A stretch of 64,000 nucleotides of DNA from a virus. Each line of letters opens with the position of its first letter. Position 1 is the first letter of the stretch. The stretch is taken from the IMG/VR virus record IMGVR_UViG_3300046318_000520, positions 63,704 through 127,703 of that record; one strand, 5' to 3'. Positions 27,173-51,990 of this stretch are shown here, piece by piece. A program made the position numbers and the translations under genes. The notes below the pieces were generated by a model. The model made no database searches. It saw nothing but the letters and a program-made list of their open reading frames with translations, and was not told the origin of the DNA.

Positions 27173-27268
27173 TGTAACTGATTGATTATCAAAGCGTTTA
27201 TCTGCCTTACAAGCAGAGGGTCGGCGGTTCAAACCCGTCAACTCCCACCTGATAATCAAGTAGTTACA
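27173..27268 (+). mobile_element. probable attP: 3' half of tRNA-Val(TAC) flanked by 19-bp inverted repeats with IHF-consensus sites
   Basis: 27200-27249 has anticodon arm TCTGC-CTTACAA-GCAGA, T arm and acceptor 3' strand but no 5' half; adjacent to the integrase. Confidence 0.85.
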
Positions 27269-29931: not shown

Positions 29932-30710
29932 TGGAGGTAGCCGGATTTGAACCGGCGTCCAAACGAGAAGTCAATAAACAAAGAGATGTTACATGCTTAG
30001 TACTGATATCTACTCCGGGATCCCGTATGTAAATAATCTGCACCGTAGTTTTGATCTGTTCATTATGTATATCCCGGCAACATGTGTTACGTTAGTTCAA
30101 AAGAACTCGTACAACTCATGGGAGGAGCGGCATCATCTCCATTCTGTCTTAAAAACAATATGAACTAATCAGTAGGGCTGACCATGTTATGGTCCGATCC
30201 ACCACCTGGTTTTAGCTATCAAGTGTGAAACCAGGAAAGTCCACTTTTATACAAGAGGGCACAGGAAGCATACAGTCAGAACTTTGAGAGTTCAATACTC
30301 TTAACGGTTCGTTTGGCCCAGTGTTTATTACCCTTTTCCCCAACCGCCTATCGTCTGTTTAGGTTCCTGACAATGTATAATAGGAGGGCTGGATGTACGT
30401 TCATGACTTTGGGAGCGTAACTCTTAATATCAATGGGCTAGTGTTTATCCTCCTGTTTTTTTGGACCTCATCTATCCAATGTTCCAGAGATGCCGTTTTG
30501 CCATTTTCTGTTGCCAGGGATAGCTCCCCCGTAGGTTAGGCTGCTACTGCAACCTCACCGAAGATAGAAGCTAAAATAGCTTCACCTTCTGCTACACGAG
30601 AAGACTGTGTCTTGCCGTTTAAAAGTTAGCTCCGTGATTAAAGTGGTTTGAGAACCTTCCCACTGCATGTTTGCTTACCACTCACAAGTCTGTCAAAACC
30701 TGTTACCCCC
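29932..30710 (-). ncRNA. ssrA: tmRNA, oversized (~780 nt)
   Basis: 5' GGGGGTAACAGGTTTTGACAG; 3' GGACGCCGGTTCAAATCCGGCTACCTCCA; G3:U acceptor pair; CTAAGCATGTA; tag frame 30616-30536 ends VAVAA*. Confidence 0.9.
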
Positions 30711-31650: not shown

Positions 31651-31757
31651 AGTGTTGTGGTTTTGAGATAAATAAGAGTAACCAGGGCTGGATTCAAACC
31701 AGCGTTCATACTCCATAAGAGGTGCCTATTCTCTTGGCTACCTGGTTATAAGTTTAG

Positions 31758-33576: not shown

Positions 33577-33695
33577 TGGTTGCAGAGATGGGATTTCAAC
33601 CCATGACCTCCCGGGTATCACCCTGGCGCTCTATTCTCGGAGTAAGGATACCGCGTTATCAGTCCCGGTCCTATTCCTTTCTGAGCTACTCTGCA
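33577..33695 (-). tRNA. tRNA-Ile(GAT)-like RNA with a large D-loop hairpin insertion
   Basis: Acceptor TGCAGAG/CTCTGCA plus encoded ACCA; D stem GCTC/GAGC; loop GTGATAC; T arm ATGGG-TTGAAAT-CCCAT. Confidence 0.7.
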
Positions 33696-43546: not shown

Positions 43547-43978
43547 ATGACTACGCTCTACAAGCTTAAAGATTACACGCACACTTTCAAGTTTGAAAAG
43601 GATCATCCAAAGGAGCTTCGGTGGGATGACAAATACAAAATGTACATGCTTACCCAGCATGATCGGTGCCAGGGTATTTGGTTAAAAGATAAGGAGCAGC
43701 TTGTAGCTGAGTTGATAGTGAGCTGGGAAAGTGATAGTGTATTGCACGGTGACAGCATAACGGTGCTCTCTGAATACAGGAGAAACGGATTAGCCACCAA
43801 GCTTGTAGACGAAATGATTGTATGGGCAGGTAATATGGGATTTGAATGGTTTACAGGAGAGGCAAGAAAAGGTAGTTCCTGGAACGTATTTGAAAACATG
43901 GGTGCTGAGCCTCTTTTTACACATAAGAACTGGCAAAAAACAAAAGAAGATTATATGTTTTTTAAAATGAAGATTTAA
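43547..43978 (+). CDS. GNAT acetyltransferase
   Basis: VLSEYRRNGLATKL acetyl-CoA motif; FENMG. Confidence 0.8.
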   Translation: MTTLYKLKDYTHTFKFEKDHPKELRWDDKYKMYMLTQHDRCQGIWLKDKEQLVAELIVSWESDSVLHGDSITVLSEYRRNGLATKLVDEMIVWAGNMGFEWFTGEARKGSSWNVFENMGAEPLFTHKNWQKTKEDYMFFKMKI

Positions 43979-45023: not shown

Positions 45024-45416
45024 ATGCCTAAGAAAATCAGGAGTGTACAGGACAACGTTTGTTTGTCCATCGTGCACTCCGTAACTAAACAAAAAACTGT
45101 ATACCAAAAACTGAGCGGGGGAGAGTCCTTCCCTGAGCAGAAGGAGGTGCTCATTAAACAACTACATGTAAACAAGTGGTTCAAAAAAGACGGAATCACT
45201 AGTGTTGAAGAGTATGTCACCGCAAAAAACACCATAGCAAAGAACAGGTCTATTGTCTTTGACAAATATTCCGGAAGGTTCTATGCTACCTACCATTCAG
45301 CCAGTGATGTTATGAATAGCATCACGGGTCCAAATGTTAACCAAATCGGATTCAGACATGATACTCAGATTCACACCACACGACCACAAGTATACAAGCA
45401 TAAAGGAGGAAGATAA
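45024..45416 (+). CDS. hypothetical protein
   Basis: 130-aa ORF. Confidence 0.6.
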   Translation: MPKKIRSVQDNVCLSIVHSVTKQKTVYQKLSGGESFPEQKEVLIKQLHVNKWFKKDGITSVEEYVTAKNTIAKNRSIVFDKYSGRFYATYHSASDVMNSITGPNVNQIGFRHDTQIHTTRPQVYKHKGGR

Positions 45417-46194
45417 ACAAGACTGGATCAGTGCCACCACTTTTATCGGAAACTTTAAGCAGCCCTTTGAAGCAGACAAGATAGCAGAAAAATGCTCCCG
45501 CACCAAGAAAAGCAAATGGTACGGACTTACACCGGAAGAAATAAAAACCGCCTGGAAATCTGAAGCCAAGCGTGCCACTGACCTGGGCACCTGGTACCAC
45601 AACCAAAGGGAATCCGATCTGTGTTCCCTACAAACCATAGAACGTAGCGGAGTTACTGTTCCCATCTTTAAGCCCCAGGAAATAGAAGGTGTAAAATATT
45701 CTCCCAACCAACGACTTGTTAACGGGGTCTACCCGGAACACATGGTGTATTTGAGATCGGCAGGTATATGTGGCCAGTCAGATCTTGTTGAAGTGATTGA
45801 CGGAGAGGTACACATCACAGATTACAAAACCAACAAGGAAATAAAGTCATCGGGCTTTACCAACTGGGAAGGTGTTACTACCAAGATGTACAATCCTGTG
45901 AGCCATTTAGATGATTGCAACCTCAGTCATTATTCATTGCAGCTGAGCCTGTACATGTTTATGATTTTAAAGCATAATCCCAAACTAAAGCCAGGTACAC
46001 TTACCATTCACCACATCACTTTTGAGGAACTGGGAAAGGATACGTTTGGCAATCCCATCAGTGCACGGGACAGTAACGGAGATCCTATTGTAACGGACAT
46101 CATTCCCTACGATCTGCCTTATCTGAAATCTGAAATAATATCATTGTTGCACTGGCTGGAAGACAACCGTCATAAAATAAAAGCAAAGAGTTGA
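45358..46194 (+). CDS. PD-(D/E)XK exonuclease
   Basis: SATT, GTWYH, CGQSDL...DYKTN, YSLQLSLY. Confidence 0.85.
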   Translation: MILRFTPHDHKYTSIKEEDKQDWISATTFIGNFKQPFEADKIAEKCSRTKKSKWYGLTPEEIKTAWKSEAKRATDLGTWYHNQRESDLCSLQTIERSGVTVPIFKPQEIEGVKYSPNQRLVNGVYPEHMVYLRSAGICGQSDLVEVIDGEVHITDYKTNKEIKSSGFTNWEGVTTKMYNPVSHLDDCNLSHYSLQLSLYMFMILKHNPKLKPGTLTIHHITFEELGKDTFGNPISARDSNGDPIVTDIIPYDLPYLKSEIISLLHWLEDNRHKIKAKS

Positions 46195-46871
46195 GGGTAG
46201 TGTTTGACCATATTAATGGCTTTGGAAAAGTAAGTGACCAGGATTTTATCTACTCTCAACCTCATGGTGTGCTTGAGCCTGGAGAAACTCCGGAAGAAGC
46301 TTTGGAGCAGGGGTGGATACCCTGGGATGGAGATTGGTATAATCTGAGATCTGTACGCATAGACGTGTCTGAGTACAAACCGCACAAAACTACCCGTAGA
46401 CTAGCTAAAAAAGTGACAGCTCTGCACCAGGAGTTTAAAGATAGTCCCGAACTGCGTGATTTGTATCAAAAGTATTGTGACTATCGTGGTTATAAACGTA
46501 CGATTACATGGGAGCAGTTGTTTACAGGACACATGATAGGCTACTATATTGATGGAGAGATCAAGGCTTATTCTACCGTAGAGCATTTTCATAGTGTGAT
46601 GGTAGCTACACAATTTGTATGGGATTACAAAGAACCAGAGCTTTCTTTAGGTAAGGTGGCACAGATGTACGAGTGTGTTCTAGCAGCTTCTTCTAGTTAC
46701 ACCCATGTTTACATACTTGGCGGATACGAAAAGTGCTGCATGTATAAGTCAGACTTCTATGGGTTTGAGTGGTGGACCGGAACCGAGTGGAACAAAGACA
46801 AAGAATTGTACAAAAAGCTTTGCCTCCGGGATGAAGCTGCAATAGTTACCTATGATGACAATGATTTATGA
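46191..46871 (+). CDS. ATE/Bpt-like aminoacyl-tRNA-protein transferase
   Basis: LEQGW...VRIDVSEYKPHKTTRR...LYQKY...LSLGKVAQMYE...VYILG...MYKSDF follows the ATE_N/ATE_C pattern. Confidence 0.75.
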   Translation: MRVVFDHINGFGKVSDQDFIYSQPHGVLEPGETPEEALEQGWIPWDGDWYNLRSVRIDVSEYKPHKTTRRLAKKVTALHQEFKDSPELRDLYQKYCDYRGYKRTITWEQLFTGHMIGYYIDGEIKAYSTVEHFHSVMVATQFVWDYKEPELSLGKVAQMYECVLAASSSYTHVYILGGYEKCCMYKSDFYGFEWWTGTEWNKDKELYKKLCLRDEAAIVTYDDNDL

Positions 46872-47064
46872 GCCAACTAACAGAGTGGAGGTTAGCACAC
46901 CCAAAGGAAACGGCATTGTATGGTTGGTAACAGACTACGGACATGAAACAGATACGATTTACACAGTGATTATAGATGAGTCAGGAGAGTTTTGGCAGTT
47001 TACACACCGAGACATCAGGGCTAAAAAGAACATAACATTTCAAAGACATGGTAAGACTATTTGA
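46852..47064 (+). CDS. hypothetical protein
   Basis: TPKG...DYG...GEFW motif. Confidence 0.65.
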   Translation: MMTMIYEPTNRVEVSTPKGNGIVWLVTDYGHETDTIYTVIIDESGEFWQFTHRDIRAKKNITFQRHGKTI

Positions 47065-47560
47065 TATACAGAATGGTAAGGTGATACCCTCGGAGCACTG
47101 CTACACTTTGAGCACACTCAAAGCTGTCATGGATGAATATGAAGATGAGGCTCCTAAAATATATGCCTACATATTCTACATGACCTGCCCTAATCCCGAT
47201 CTAAATCCCTTTTTTGATGTACCAGAATCTGAAAAAGAAGAGCTTATTCTCAGAGAAGTTGATGCTGACTTTTCAACTGATGACACTGTTATTGATGACG
47301 CTATCAAGCTGTGCCAGAAAATGTACCAGACATCAACGTACCGGGCTTATATGGGTATCAAGACGATGCTGGACCGGCTTGCTAAGTATATGGAGACAAC
47401 AGAGATTGAGCACGGAAGAGATGGAAACATTACTGCTCTGGTCAACGCTGCTGCCAAGTTTGAAGCTATACGCCAATCGTTTAAGGGAACTCTAAGGGAC
47501 CTTGAAGAAGAGCAACAATCACAAGTTAGAGGTGGACAAAATTTAGCATACGATCAATAA
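47048..47560 (+). CDS. conserved hypothetical protein (candidate small terminase)
   Basis: Helical protein upstream of terL; function inferred from position. Confidence 0.45.
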   Translation: MVRLFDIQNGKVIPSEHCYTLSTLKAVMDEYEDEAPKIYAYIFYMTCPNPDLNPFFDVPESEKEELILREVDADFSTDDTVIDDAIKLCQKMYQTSTYRAYMGIKTMLDRLAKYMETTEIEHGRDGNITALVNAAAKFEAIRQSFKGTLRDLEEEQQSQVRGGQNLAYDQ

Positions 47561-47566
47561 AATATT

Positions 47567-48214
47567 ATGCAGACAACAATTAATCCCTACAAGGAATACA
47601 AACAGAGACTTAACAGCATGTTAGAAAAAGCCATCAAGATAAAAATACCTGATGCTGAGTATGACATAATAAAAGACTTTGCCGAGCAATGGAAAGTTGA
47701 AAAGATAAAAGCAGGTGTTCATTACACTATAGACCAGAACTACATGACCTCAAGAAGTCTTACAGGGCATGCCGGTCAGATTGCTTTGGAACATCATCTT
47801 AATGTGAAGTTCACAGACCTGGATCCAACGTTTGGTTATGAAAAAAATCTACCGGATCTATCACCCGTTGGCCTGCGTGTCGGTATAAAAACACACCGCT
47901 TTGATAATCCTCCGTTGCTGAACTACCTACCTGTTAGTGTTTATGAAAAAATGGATGAGCAGACACAAAAGAAACACTACTACCCACAGATCATTTTATC
48001 AAGGGATCCTAATTGCGCCAAGACCTTTTATATCCTGGGAGTTTATTCAGTGAATATTCTCTGGCACCCTGACTACACAGAAAAAGGTTTGATCTATGAT
48101 GAGAACCTGGCAAACCGTGGTACTAAAATTCCTTTTATAGGACTACACAGAGGGCATGTGTTTAACAGTTTGGAAGAACTTAAAAATATCGTTGGTCCCA
48201 AATGGACCATTTAA
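47567..48214 (+). CDS. putative PD-(D/E)XK-fold protein
   Basis: G..GQ.A...PDL....VGIKT. Confidence 0.45.
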   Translation: MQTTINPYKEYKQRLNSMLEKAIKIKIPDAEYDIIKDFAEQWKVEKIKAGVHYTIDQNYMTSRSLTGHAGQIALEHHLNVKFTDLDPTFGYEKNLPDLSPVGLRVGIKTHRFDNPPLLNYLPVSVYEKMDEQTQKKHYYPQIILSRDPNCAKTFYILGVYSVNILWHPDYTEKGLIYDENLANRGTKIPFIGLHRGHVFNSLEELKNIVGPKWTI

Positions 48215-48217
48215 AAT

Positions 48218-48571
48218 ATGATCAATAACCTATACACCTACAAAGCCACTGTCAACCGGATAATTGACGGGGACACAGCAGAACTGACCATTGACCTGGG
48301 ATTCACCGTAAAGTGGAAATCCACTTGCAGGTTCTATGGTATAAACACACCTGAATTAAAAAGCAGAGATGTAGCCGTCAGAGATAAAGCCAAAGATGCC
48401 AGGCTATATGTAAGCACACAATTAATAACAGGACTGGAAGTGATGATTGTTTCCCGTATGCTGGATAAATATGGCAGGCCACTGGTGGATATTTACTACG
48501 GAAAAGATTTTACAAATCATATTAACCAGGAGCTTGTTGACAAGCAACTGGCTGTGACATATTTATTGTAA
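48218..48571 (+). CDS. thermonuclease (SNase) family protein
   Basis: IIDGDT...GINTPE...DKYGRPL. Confidence 0.88.
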   Translation: MINNLYTYKATVNRIIDGDTAELTIDLGFTVKWKSTCRFYGINTPELKSRDVAVRDKAKDARLYVSTQLITGLEVMIVSRMLDKYGRPLVDIYYGKDFTNHINQELVDKQLAVTYLL

Positions 48572-48661
48572 GGTGGTGAAACTGGCAGACACACCTCCCG
48601 GTCTCGGAGGCGGGAGTGGGGAATCCCCGCTCGTTTGGAGGTTCAAATCCTCCCCTTACAG
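48567..48661 (+). tRNA. class II tRNA-like RNA with atypical anticodon loop (GTC)
   Basis: Acceptor TGTAAGG/CCTTACA-G; CCTCC-CGGTCTC-GGAGG; 8-bp variable arm; GGAGG-TTCAAAT-CCTCC. Confidence 0.8.
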
Positions 48662-48693
48662 CTGATTTATTAATTAACAATAAACCTAAAAAC

Positions 48694-49224
48694 ATGAAAA
48701 AGGTTATTTTTTTAGCATTAGTAATTTTTGCAATGTCGTGCACCAAGAGTACTGACAGCGTTATCCATGGTACCAAGCAGGAAGCCGGAGCCTGGGTATA
48801 TGATTCTGCATTTAAAAAACCGGTACAGGTTACAGATAATTTCTATCTGATCAGCCCAACCTGGGGACAGTCGTTTGATTATGCTTCTAAGAGAGCAGAC
48901 AGGGAACTCTACGTAGGCCTGGCTGTATTGCTGCTGGCTATAGCCGTGTTTCTGGTGATATCAAAAGCTAAAGACGCCGCATGGGTGCCTAAGTTTTTTG
49001 ATAACACACACATCTTTAACATGTGTCTTTTCATTTTACTCTCATCTAGTGCTTCTTCTTTTTTAGCTCATCCCGGTGGTATCAGATTTAATAATGACAA
49101 ATGGGTCAATAAGATTGACTATGACAAAGTAATTAAAGAGTCAGGATCTACACAACCTATCTGGGACAGTCTTGAAACCAACTGCCTTATTGTAGACGGT
49201 CCTTACAATTGTTATACTAAATAA
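48694..49224 (+). CDS. lipoprotein-signal membrane protein
   Basis: MKKVIFLALVIFAMS-C lipobox plus two TM segments. Confidence 0.65.
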   Translation: MKKVIFLALVIFAMSCTKSTDSVIHGTKQEAGAWVYDSAFKKPVQVTDNFYLISPTWGQSFDYASKRADRELYVGLAVLLLAIAVFLVISKAKDAAWVPKFFDNTHIFNMCLFILLSSSASSFLAHPGGIRFNNDKWVNKIDYDKVIKESGSTQPIWDSLETNCLIVDGPYNCYTK

Positions 49225-49511: not shown

Positions 49512-49793
49512 ATGCAAAATGAAGTTTACACAGATCATGAAGGATTTGGTTTTTACATCCCAGGTCAAGAACCTGTTCATGGACCTGACAATAGTTGCTA
49601 TAATTATGTCTTTCACTATAATGGCTATGCTGGCTTGTGGGCTGCTATTCCTCGTGATGTGTACAATGATTACTGGAGTGACAGTAATACTCCTGGTGTC
49701 ATTCGTAGCAAGTCCATTCAAACGCTTGTGGAGATACTTTATAAAACCCAAGGAGACCCTTCTCTGATAGACCAGTTGACCCGTGAGCAATAA
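49512..49793 (+). CDS. hypothetical protein
   Basis: 93-aa ORF overlapping the terL start. Confidence 0.65.
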   Translation: MQNEVYTDHEGFGFYIPGQEPVHGPDNSCYNYVFHYNGYAGLWAAIPRDVYNDYWSDSNTPGVIRSKSIQTLVEILYKTQGDPSLIDQLTREQ

Positions 49794-51990
49794 TCCGGTG
49801 TATATAGAAGTGCCCACCTATGAAAACAACCAGTGGGGCGTCACAGTATTTCAGACACGGGATGAGTTCCGTGACTTTCTTGTGCCCCTGTTTAAAGAAC
49901 CGGGTGAGTATCAGTTTGACGAAGCTTCTAAAATCTTTAATGTAGAGGGAAGAAAGTTCCAGCAACAGGGTTATTACTGTGCGGCACCTGTTAAGACTAA
50001 AGACTTTATTACCTACTGGAATGACCAGAAAAACAAATGCCGCTTTGGTATCATTGTAAAATCAGACAGCAACACCTGGTATTTATCAAGAGACTACTAC
50101 ATGTGGTTGAACTTCCTGCCAATCTATGACAAGGAAGAAAAACGATTTGACTTTGCCAAGATAAGGGACGCCCAGTATCACATGGCCATGTACGAGATCC
50201 TGGCTGAGATGCATTACAAGCATGCCATCATTTTAAAGAAACGTCAGATTGCATCTTCTTATTTTCACATGGCCAAGCTCATTAACCAGTGGGTCTTTGA
50301 ACAGGGTGCTGTTCTTAAGATTGGTGCCAGTCTTAAAGATTATATTAACGAGAAAGGATCCTGGAAGTTTTTAAATGAGTATAGAAACTTTTTAAACGAG
50401 CACACTGCCTGGTACAGACCGGCAGAACCAGACAAGGTGGGAGCGTGGAACCAGCAGATCAAGGTGAGACAGGGTGGTCGTGATACCTATAGAGGTAACA
50501 AGTCCACCATAAACTCATACAGCTTTGAAAAGGACCCCACAAACGGTGTGGGTGGACCTGTGACATACTTCTTTCATGAAGAGGCAGGAATAGCCCCTAA
50601 AATGGACGACACCTATGGCTTTATGAAACCGGCCCTTAAGTCTGGTCATATCATCACCGGTCAGTTCATAGCTGCAGGATCAGTGGGTGACCTGGATCAG
50701 TGTGAACCCATGAAAGAATACATCCTGCATCCTGAGGAAAACGGATTCTACGGGGTGCCTTCTAATCTTATTGATAAGGACGGGACAATAGGCAGCACTG
50801 GGTTGTTTATTCCGGAACAGTGGAGTATGCCTCCGTATATAGATCAATACGGTAACTCTAAAGTGCAGGAGGCATTAGAGGCCTTAGAGACTGAGTTTGC
50901 TAAAATGAAAAAAGAGCTGGCCCCGGATGCATACCAGCTTACCGTTTCACAGCAACCACGTAACATAGAGGAAGCATTTGCCACCCGTAAGGTGAGCGTA
51001 TTTCCGCCACATCTTATTTCTAAACAACTGCAACGTATATCAGACAAAGAATACCCTGTTGAATATTTAGAACTCTCTCGTAATGCAGAAGGAAAGCTTA
51101 CAGACAAACCCAGTCGTAAGATTCCCATCATGGACTTTCCCATCTCTAAAAAAACAGAAGATAAAGAGGGAGTGCTCTGTGTATACGAGCGTCCCTGTAA
51201 AGATCCACAGTTTGGAAACTATTACGCTTCCATTGACCCGGTGGGAGAGGGTAAGACAACAACATCAGAGTCACTGTGTGCTATCTATGTATATAAAAAC
51301 CCGGTGGAAGTAATCAAAGATGACGGCAATGGTAAAGTGGAGCACAGTATAGAACGGGATAAGATTGTGGCTTCTTGGTGCGGACGTTTTGACGACATCA
51401 ACAAAACCCATGAACGCCTGGAGATGATCATTGAATGGTACAATGCCTGGACCATTGTGGAAAATAACGTGGCCCTGTTCATTCAGTATATGATTAGCCG
51501 CAAACGCCAGCGGTATTTGGTGCCCAAGGACATGATCTTATTTCTTAAAGATATTGGGGCTAATCGTAATGTATTTCAGGAATACGGATGGAAAAACGTG
51601 GGTACACTGTTTAAAGGAAACATTCTCTCCTATGGTATTGAATTTCTAAAAGAGGAGCTGGATGTACAAACAAAAGAAGATGGCACCATTGTAAAAACCA
51701 CCTACGGCGTGGAACGAATACCTGATCCCATGCTCCTTAAAGAGATGCAGGCCTACCAGGAAGGGGTGAATGTGGACAGGTTAGTGGCATTTTGTGCCCT
51801 GGTTGCGTTCTCTAAAATACAACTTTCTAATAGAGGTTTTGCCAAACGTGTAGAACATACAGGCCAAAAGTTGGAGAACTCACAAAAATTCAGTAAATTA
51901 AATTATACCCCCTTTAGGCATTTGGGTGGATCTGGTAACGGGTCACCAAACCAGAGACCTTCCCGTAACGCTTTCAAAAACCTTCGTTAA
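49783..51990 (+). CDS. terL: terminase large subunit
   Basis: LKKRQIASS Walker A variant, FHEEAG Walker B, SIDP and NVDR RNaseH-fold nuclease; crAss-like type. Confidence 0.9.
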   Translation: MSNNPVYIEVPTYENNQWGVTVFQTRDEFRDFLVPLFKEPGEYQFDEASKIFNVEGRKFQQQGYYCAAPVKTKDFITYWNDQKNKCRFGIIVKSDSNTWYLSRDYYMWLNFLPIYDKEEKRFDFAKIRDAQYHMAMYEILAEMHYKHAIILKKRQIASSYFHMAKLINQWVFEQGAVLKIGASLKDYINEKGSWKFLNEYRNFLNEHTAWYRPAEPDKVGAWNQQIKVRQGGRDTYRGNKSTINSYSFEKDPTNGVGGPVTYFFHEEAGIAPKMDDTYGFMKPALKSGHIITGQFIAAGSVGDLDQCEPMKEYILHPEENGFYGVPSNLIDKDGTIGSTGLFIPEQWSMPPYIDQYGNSKVQEALEALETEFAKMKKELAPDAYQLTVSQQPRNIEEAFATRKVSVFPPHLISKQLQRISDKEYPVEYLELSRNAEGKLTDKPSRKIPIMDFPISKKTEDKEGVLCVYERPCKDPQFGNYYASIDPVGEGKTTTSESLCAIYVYKNPVEVIKDDGNGKVEHSIERDKIVASWCGRFDDINKTHERLEMIIEWYNAWTIVENNVALFIQYMISRKRQRYLVPKDMILFLKDIGANRNVFQEYGWKNVGTLFKGNILSYGIEFLKEELDVQTKEDGTIVKTTYGVERIPDPMLLKEMQAYQEGVNVDRLVAFCALVAFSKIQLSNRGFAKRVEHTGQKLENSQKFSKLNYTPFRHLGGSGNGSPNQRPSRNAFKNLR

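Follow-up and report, generated by a model that had tools for sequence, protein, structure and literature searches.

A predicted ATE1-fold transferase homologue, its small partner gene, and a separately distributed tRNA-Asp-like RNA in a 128-kb phage genome

Genes and RNAs at the locus

The window analyzed here is a 64,000-nucleotide stretch of DNA, the last 64 kb of the 127,703-bp virus record IMGVR_UViG_3300046318_000520 (completeness of 99% by CheckV). Our subject is a transferase gene within it, which we call mini-ATE, together with the small gene g70 that follows it, a tRNA-like RNA further downstream, and a gene on the other strand that resembles transfer-messenger RNA (tmRNA). A first-pass annotation had joined the transferase, several aberrant tRNAs, and the tmRNA into a single protein-tagging system in which the odd tRNAs serve as dedicated donors for the transferase. 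We consider it likely that the window instead carries three independent accessory modules of a 128-kb phage, because relatives gain and lose the transferase gene and the RNA independently of each other. The four elements are as follows.

46191-46871, plus strand: mini-ATE, a 226-aa, ATE_C-only homologue of aminoacyl-tRNA-protein transferases with a cysteine-free N terminus
46861-47064 (start at 46852 or 46861), plus strand: g70, a conserved, beta-rich protein of 62 to 67 aa, directly 3' of mini-ATE
48567-48662, plus strand: tRNA-like RNA, class II shaped, 96 nt (ARAGORN score, 119)
29932-30710, minus strand: expanded tmRNA-like gene of 779 nt; its two ends resemble tRNA, and it includes a tag frame of 26 residues

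Predicted fold and conserved residues of mini-ATE

Mini-ATE matches the Pfam family ATE_C (PF04377) over residues 80 to 191 with 29 bits (cut-off, 25; E value, 1.9e-6). Against the Bpt-type “arginyltransferase” models of NCBIfam it scores weakly, at best 27.4 bits versus a cut-off of 170, and so misses the equivalog level; it has no PHROG family, and tblastn returned no match among 50,697 deposited phage records. The AlphaFold2 (AF2) model, which like the residue conservation reported below is based on an alignment of 77 mini-ATE family members, reached a predicted local distance difference test score (pLDDT) of 94.2 and a predicted template modeling score (pTM) of 0.89. When this model was compared with the PDB by Foldseek, the top 10 matches were ATE1 chains from human, K. 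lactis, and S. cerevisiae (human 8tzv at an E value of 1.2e-9), and the next matches were MprF-type aminoacyl-phosphatidylglycerol synthases, Sba18, and FemX, all of which are aminoacyl-tRNA-dependent transferases. The family profile retrieved klAte1 (7wfx) from the PDB sequences at an E value of 1.3e-8.

We mapped the residues of klAte1 onto mini-ATE by means of the family-profile alignment and the available part of PMC9351520. The catalytic Lys304 corresponds to K186, which is kept in 76 of the 77 family members and whose equivalent in FemX is K305. Tyr303 corresponds to Y185 (Tyr in 66 members and Trp in 9 more), Trp260 to W144 (57/77), and Glu277 to E161 (65/77). According to the same part of PMC9351520, Glu277 alone is charged among the residues that form the pocket for the Arg moiety and is replaced by Gln189 in Bpt, and the four donor-pocket positions are Ser, Ser, Glu, and Tyr in Ate1 and Ala, Ala, Gln, and Leu in Bpt. 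Mini-ATE has A139, A157, E161, and V173 at these positions, and the family consensus is S, S, E, and L; judged by its residues, the donor pocket of mini-ATE is a hybrid of the Ate1 and Bpt types.

Model and alignment together predict that mini-ATE is an ATE1-fold homologue of the aminoacyl-tRNA-dependent transferases in which the catalytic Lys and Tyr are kept, and the earlier identification of an ATE/Bpt-like protein at these positions is borne out. Pfam gave no ATE_N match in mini-ATE or in 10 distant family members. On inspection of the sequence, residues 1 to 95 of mini-ATE contain no Cys and hence none of the zinc-finger cysteines.

Eukaryotic ATE1 (klAte1 7WFX/7WG1, yeast 7TIF/8E3S, and human 8TZV) is the best match by both structure and profile and shares with mini-ATE the GNAT-type ATE_C core and conserved equivalents of the four mapped residues. 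Mini-ATE is unlike ATE1 in its length (226 aa versus about 500), in having neither an ATE_N match nor the C4 zinc finger nor the C-terminal domain, in its pocket (A, A, E, V versus S, S, E, Y), in its association with a small partner gene, and in its occurrence on viral contigs and contigs of metagenome-assembled genomes (MAGs) only. The bacterial Leu-tRNA-protein transferase Bpt is similar in size (Bpt-type proteins have about 230 to 250 aa), its models are the only named NCBIfam matches of mini-ATE, and small or hydrophobic residues occupy three of the four pocket positions in mini-ATE, as in the Bpt set of Ala, Ala, Gln, and Leu given in the available part of PMC9351520. Mini-ATE departs from Bpt in its score (27 bits versus cut-offs of 170 to 267), in having Glu for Gln in the pocket, and in the absence of N-terminal Cys motifs.

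The mini-ATE family is viral. Relatives were found on at least 549 viral contigs and form 186 clusters at 50% identity (E value of ≤0.001); species genomes yielded only nine mini-ATE loci, all on MAG contigs. Many family members are labeled arginyltransferase by JGI, a name that public pipelines already give to these genes. Apart from eukaryotic ATE1, the tRNA-dependent protein transferases known to us are bacterial Bpt and Aat. A literature search, with supplementary files outside its reach, found no paper on a viral mini-ATE family of this kind.

Linkage to g70 and possible acceptors

g70 lies directly downstream of the transferase gene in 71 of 74 loci, even where all other neighbors differ; the three exceptions are one truncated locus and two without a g70 match. 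In the reverse search, the transferase gene was directly upstream in 66 of 80 g70 loci, with a gap of −16 to +26 nt. Across the transferase loci, g70 is conserved at 63 to 87% identity and the transferase at 45 to 55%. g70 matches no Pfam family, and an Atlas look-up returned viral hypothetical clusters only. The g70 genes without an adjacent transferase (14 loci, including L167, L194, L208, and L233, around position 1501-1700) belong to another phage group, where they sit among small, very lysine-rich open reading frames (ORFs).

We propose that mini-ATE and g70 form a two-gene cassette, the first of the three modules, in which mini-ATE would belong to the ATE1/Bpt/Fem/MprF superfamily as a virus-type member. 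Our inferences concern the donor, the acceptor, and any biological role: mini-ATE would move an aminoacyl group from an ordinary host aminoacyl-tRNA to an amine acceptor. Our best guess for the donor is a basic amino acid, because the residue to which the Arg moiety binds in klAte1, a Glu, is retained in the pocket. The acceptor is probably not a classical Asp or Glu N terminus, because mini-ATE is without the ATE_N zinc finger and, judged by a motif alignment, probably without the Arg that reads acidic N termini. This residue, klAte1 Arg80, presumably falls at I43/P44 of mini-ATE, positions that hold L or I and P across the family and are not basic. Because it is constantly adjacent, g70 is the leading candidate for the acceptor or for a specificity partner.

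Several points qualify this proposal. The putative lack of an Arg80 equivalent comes from a motif alignment and not from a structural superposition. The pair is tight but not obligate, because 14 of the 80 g70 loci have no transferase gene within 1.5 kb, profile search included, and 2 of the 74 transferase loci gave no g70. The AF2 model of g70 is weak (pLDDT, 66.8), and the Tudor/SH3-like barrels that head its Foldseek matches fall short of significance (E value of 0.19 or worse) and serve as a lead only. A complex prediction for mini-ATE with g70 scored 0.00 against a mark of 0.32 and counts neither for nor against binding.

An alternative is that mini-ATE is a Bpt-like writer of N-degrons, which would transfer Leu or Arg from host tRNAs to the N termini of host proteins, for example, defense proteins, and so mark them for degradation by ClpS-ClpAP, with g70 being incidental. 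The ATE1 fold, the catalytic Lys, and the arginyltransferase label are all consistent with this. Of 41 genomes sampled from the Chitinophagaceae, the bacterial family to which a MAG with a related phage-like contig belongs, 37 had ClpS and 5 a cellular-type ATE_C, and ClpS-like genes are present on that contig and in one of five other complete phage genomes that bear the transferase. The two ORFs (L251, at G008:C1:118250-118408, and G012:C153:4446-4634) score 48.7 and 41.2 bits against a cut-off of 23, and both records carry mini-ATE, one being a complete related phage genome and the other a 118-kb phage-like contig binned with the Chitinophagaceae MAG. Phage-encoded ClpS is also reported in the available part of a jumbo-phage survey (PMC7824862). 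This context makes an N-degron role possible without singling it out. Against it stand the missing ATE_N match, zinc-finger cysteines, and evident Arg80 equivalent, the shortfall from the Bpt equivalog cut-off, the absence of ClpS and ClpP genes from this phage, and the tight linkage to g70, which it leaves unexplained; the assignment of a Chitinophagaceae host is weak and comes from binning alone. On balance, we judge this alternative unlikely.

Mini-ATE could also aminoacylate something other than a protein, for instance, a lipid, a precursor of the cell wall, or a small molecule, in the manner of MprF, FemX, and Sba18-type enzymes. These enzymes are the next structural matches after ATE1, two family members also match Acetyltransf_6 (PF13480; P0069 in the precomputed domain annotation and P0247 by hmmscan), and the element with which ATE1 reads its protein acceptor is seemingly missing. 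The ATE1 chains nevertheless match better by about 3 orders of magnitude in E value, mini-ATE has no membrane domain, and its constant partner is a small protein, which together make a nonprotein acceptor decidedly unlikely. Between these alternatives, we retain the mini-ATE-g70 cassette, with g70 as the candidate acceptor or partner, as our working proposal.

The tRNA-like RNA and its family

The tRNA-like RNA is the sole tRNA that ARAGORN calls in the whole 127,703-bp record, and the Rfam tRNA model did not report it at an E value of ≤1. It folds into a cloverleaf of the 7/5 acceptor/T configuration in which the D stem has 3 bp and the extra arm 8 bp; its anticodon loop reads CGGUCUC, giving G33, anticodon GUC, U37, and C38, and its discriminator base is G. 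The gene overlaps the stop codon of the upstream nuclease gene. The description of a class II tRNA without U33 and purine 37 near the transferase thus stands. Two other readings were considered and set aside: neither a shifted anticodon register (CUC) nor a 9-nt loop gives both U33 and purine 37, and the reverse strand read as a tRNA is likewise without U33.

A search with the D arm recovered 56 viral loci, about half of which are ordinary tRNA-Leu genes, while the rest make up a single family, here called the odd RNA. It comprises 23 distinct full-length sequences of 84 to 161 nt, from 37 locus copies, which have in common the acceptor stem (U1-A72 and G2-C71), the D arm, a 5-bp anticodon stem, the T arm, and a discriminator G. 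All five anticodon-stem pairs vary across the family and every combination is still a standard pair, and covariation extends to one acceptor pair and two T-stem pairs. The extra arm is hypervariable, with lengths between 15 and 92 nt. All but one of the 23 sequences share the loop NNGUCUC; position 33 is U in 15, G in 6, A in 1, and C in 1, and position 37 is always a pyrimidine. Invariant in all 23 are G34, U35, C36, C38, and G73, as well as G2-C71. The only loop departure belongs to the tRNA-like gene of L027, located between the nuclease gene and g93, which has GTCCC in place of GTCTC. Loci L113 and L161 (minus strand, near 276-293) hold tRNA-Leu-like sequences with the same D arm and an insertion of ∼21 nt on the 5' side of the anticodon arm, which ARAGORN does not call. 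A literature search found no description of the odd RNA family.

According to the available part of PMC9976931, the five strong identity determinants of tRNA-Asp are G73, G34, U35, C36, and C38, and G73 acts as an antideterminant against the leucyl- and tyrosyl-tRNA synthetases (LeuRS and TyrRS). Because the invariant bases are these five, the odd RNA looks like a derivative of tRNA-Asp on a class-II-like body rather than a Ser- or Leu-type donor, and charging with leucine is unlikely. The earlier assignment as a Ser/Leu-type donor tRNA is accordingly not supported, given also that mini-ATE keeps the Arg-binding Glu. That the invariant bases are the aspartate identity set is a new point of this analysis.

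The resemblance is partial. The odd RNA shares with bacterial tRNA-Asp G73, G34, U35, C36, C38, and G2-C71, and it differs in its long extra arm, in U37 where a purine is expected, and in a D arm of the phage tRNA-Leu type. Three further features count against the aspartate assignment: pair 1-72 is U1-A72 in 23 of 23 sequences, versus the G1-C72 conserved in bacterial tRNA-Asp; the RNA of the window has G33, where U33 is found in 15 of the 23; and a long extra arm with G73 and G2-C71 would fit serine identity as well. Among the class II tRNAs (A73 in tRNA-Leu, G73 in tRNA-Ser), the long arm and G73 agree with tRNA-Ser, and many phage tRNA-Leu genes have exactly the same D arm. Charging by aspartyl-tRNA synthetase (AspRS) and decoding are therefore uncertain, because of the G33 and other non-U33 members and the U1-A72 pair.

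We propose that this RNA, derived from tRNA-Asp and class II in shape, constitutes the second module, located in a site of variable cargo immediately ahead of the terminase genes. Most likely, it would either replace tRNA-Asp in a version with a changed anticodon loop or serve as a decoy, in conflicts with host defenses that target tRNAs. The closest published idea, to which we draw the connection by analogy, is that of substitute tRNAs with altered loops or decoys in response to tRNA-targeting defenses, as set out in the available parts of PMC10264068 and PMC11555353. The nuclease-escaping phage tRNAs described there are likewise phage encoded, with a loop that departs from the host-type consensus and an anticodon that is kept. 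In contrast to them, the odd RNA joins an aspartate-type anticodon loop to a class-II-like body whose extra arm measures 15 to 92 nt; position 37 is a pyrimidine in 23 of 23 sequences, U33 is missing from 8 of 23, and decoding by this RNA is putative.

It might be argued that the RNA is a decaying tRNA pseudogene or the functionless remnant of an attachment site, as its noncanonical loop, its variable site, and the failure of Rfam to detect every copy, and of ARAGORN to detect the long-armed ones, would suggest; set against the compensatory changes that keep the stem pairs in 23 sequences, the five invariant loop and acceptor bases, an extra arm that ranges from 15 to 92 nt, and the presence of the RNA in phages with other genome contexts, this is highly improbable.

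tmRNA and other tRNA-like sequences

The tag frame of the tmRNA-like gene encodes 26 residues that end in ...VAVAA, followed by a stop codon. The gene scores 17 bits against Rfam RF00023, below the gathering score of 47. Its ends are 82% and 78% identical to those of the tmRNA of relative G005; this tmRNA (474 nt, 84.1 bits) and that of a second relative, G002 (418 nt, 90.4 bits), both pass the Rfam threshold, and the window copy resembles both in the DNA sequence of its ends. Since only the ends and one 72-nt internal stretch (96% identical to G002) can be aligned, the window copy appears to contain an internal expansion of some 300 nt. It is thus like known tmRNAs in having tRNA-like ends, a tag frame, and homologues that pass the threshold, and unlike them in its length of 779 nt, its expansion, and its low score. 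The long-tag tmRNA reported previously is present on this evidence, and we regard it as the third module, which would be a phage tmRNA with an internal expansion.

Three further aberrant tRNAs had been noted in the window, and tRNA-like sequences were indeed found at three positions.

31679-31747, minus strand: tRNA-like sequence with a shortened anticodon loop of 5 nt (Rfam tRNA, 36.9 bits; fold)
33577-33695, minus strand: tRNA-like sequence of 119 nt with an insert in the D loop, by our reading of the sequence and fold
27180-27247, plus strand: tRNA match (22 bits)

The sequence at 33577-33695 may have its counterpart in G002, where the Rfam tRNA model gives a 115-nt match of 42.9 bits.

Distribution across relatives

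Mini-ATE lies in a plus-strand run of genes that comprises a GNAT acetyltransferase, a PD-(D/E)XK exonuclease, the ATE-like ORF, small ORFs, a homologue of staphylococcal nuclease, and the large terminase; the genes of the transferase and tRNA-like RNA region and the terminase are thus all on one strand, which is as far as the earlier label of a late block is borne out. The neighbors that frame the comparison with relatives are as follows.

43547-43978, plus strand: GNAT acetyltransferase (Pfam Acetyltransf_1; E value, 1.2e-8)
45334-46194, plus strand: PD-(D/E)XK exonuclease, upstream anchor of the transferase site (PHROG 298, exonuclease; E value, 9.6e-25)
47048-47560, plus strand: g170, a conserved clade gene between the transferase site and the tRNA site
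47567-48214, plus strand: 215-aa ORF, variable-site cargo
48218-48571, plus strand: staphylococcal-nuclease-like ORF, variable-site cargo (Pfam SNase, E value of 4.1e-7; PHROG 452, endonuclease)
49783-51990, plus strand: large terminase subunit, downstream anchor of the tRNA site (PHROG 6681; E value, 2.7e-62)

The order in the clade is GNAT, three or four small genes, the exonuclease, site 1, g170, site 2, a 93-aa gene, and the terminase. The exonuclease is conserved with or without the transferase, and g170 is present in 26 of 26 transferase loci of the clade and in relatives that lack the transferase. The GNAT gene, whose earlier identification at 43547 is confirmed by the Acetyltransf_1 match, is likewise a conserved clade gene independent of the transferase, being kept in the transferase-less relatives L032, L033, L116, L144, and L147. 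The ORF at 48694-49224 (plus strand), 3' of the tRNA-like gene, reads as having a lipoprotein-type signal at its start (a hydrophobic stretch followed by Cys). A GTG at 48616 would open a longer version of this ORF, one that overlaps the RNA gene; it is unlikely to be the true start.

Site 1, from the exonuclease to g170, contains the transferase with g70, an ORF of 205 to 207 aa with or without a 124-aa ORF, or an ORF of 171 to 172 aa. The alternative cassettes include L030:1754-2377, L032:3978-4969 (with the 124-aa ORF), L028:7482-7997 (minus strand), and L029:5135-5653 (minus strand). The cargo of site 2 consists of nuclease, lipoprotein-like, and other ORFs, tRNA genes, the odd RNA, or nothing; the 215-aa and nuclease-like ORFs of the window are each found in some relatives only. 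The canonical tRNAs at site 2 in relatives, tRNA-Leu(CAG), tRNA-Met(CAT), and tRNA-Cys(GCA), have normal loops. The tRNA-Met(CAT) genes at L015:1922-1993, L018:8269-8340, and L030:2991-3062 have three consecutive G-C pairs by the anticodon loop and U1-A72, which we take to be an initiator-like set of features.

Loci were sampled by searching for the transferase or for the odd RNA. Because ARAGORN misses odd RNAs with long extra arms, co-occurrence was counted by pattern and stem scans; a stem-and-loop scan raised the number of transferase loci with the odd RNA by five, and a scan for the 5'-end motif added L027. Among loci that span both sites, 8 hold both elements, 19 hold the transferase alone, and the odd RNA stands alone in 10, and the odd-RNA pattern is present in two of six transferase-bearing genomes that are at least 97% complete. 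The tmRNA also varies apart from the transferase: it is present in a relative whose site 1 holds other genes, and no tmRNA was detected in a transferase-bearing relative whose genome is 100% complete.

The donor pocket is constant throughout. A139, A157, E161, and V173, together with the catalytic residues, are identical in the 26 full-length copies among the 27 of the clade (the partial L027 copy lacks position 139), whether the neighbor is the odd RNA, tRNA-Leu, tRNA-Met, tRNA-Cys, or no tRNA. That the pocket does not track the neighboring tRNA is the second new point. The tRNA-Leu, tRNA-Met, and tRNA-Cys neighbors in relatives were considered as dedicated donors in their own right and rejected, as the pocket is unchanged with them.

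Some considerations temper the case for independent modules. Genomes lacking both the transferase and the RNA lie outside the sample, and no association statistic could be given for that reason. Many loci are near-identical contigs from different samples (e.g., L008-L014), fragments without the transferase at its usual site could hold it elsewhere, and the RNA pattern applied to whole genomes would miss diverged copies. The transferase and the odd RNA do co-occur in the eight loci, and they lie 1.7 kb apart in the window.

Co-occurrence across relatives had been named beforehand as the test that could refute the tagging system, and the distribution proved to be independent. The idea that the odd RNAs are charged but excluded from the ribosome and serve as dedicated donors, so that with the tmRNA the phage would write both N- and C-terminal degrons, can draw on the short distance and shared strand, on the eight shared loci, on G33 and U37, which should hamper decoding, and on the covariation of the stems, which indicates selection; yet the 19 transferase-only and 10 RNA-only loci, the lack of the RNA pattern in four of six complete transferase-bearing genomes, a pocket that is the same whichever tRNA adjoins and whose Glu suits a basic side chain where the RNA has aspartate determinants, and the separate distribution of the tmRNA make it extremely improbable.

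Significance

The three-module reading leaves room for a more specific one: that mini-ATE and g70 carry out an undescribed, tRNA-dependent protein modification in phages, with g70 or a g70-recruited protein as the acceptor and no classical N-degrons, and that, separately, the odd RNA is a new, AspRS-chargeable, class-II-shaped tRNA-Asp whose altered loop and expandable arm counter tRNA-targeting defenses. We put this forward tentatively and give it a low chance of being correct. In practical terms the outcome is negative, in that donor RNA, transferase, and tmRNA are not worth pursuing as a single unit. If active, a viral ATE_C family with a Cys-free N terminus and a tiny conserved protein at its side would mean a new acceptor logic. 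The odd RNA family, because it places aspartate determinants on a Leu/Ser-type body, would offer a natural test case for the rules of tRNA identity and for the idea that phages retain tRNAs resistant to cleavage by host nucleases.

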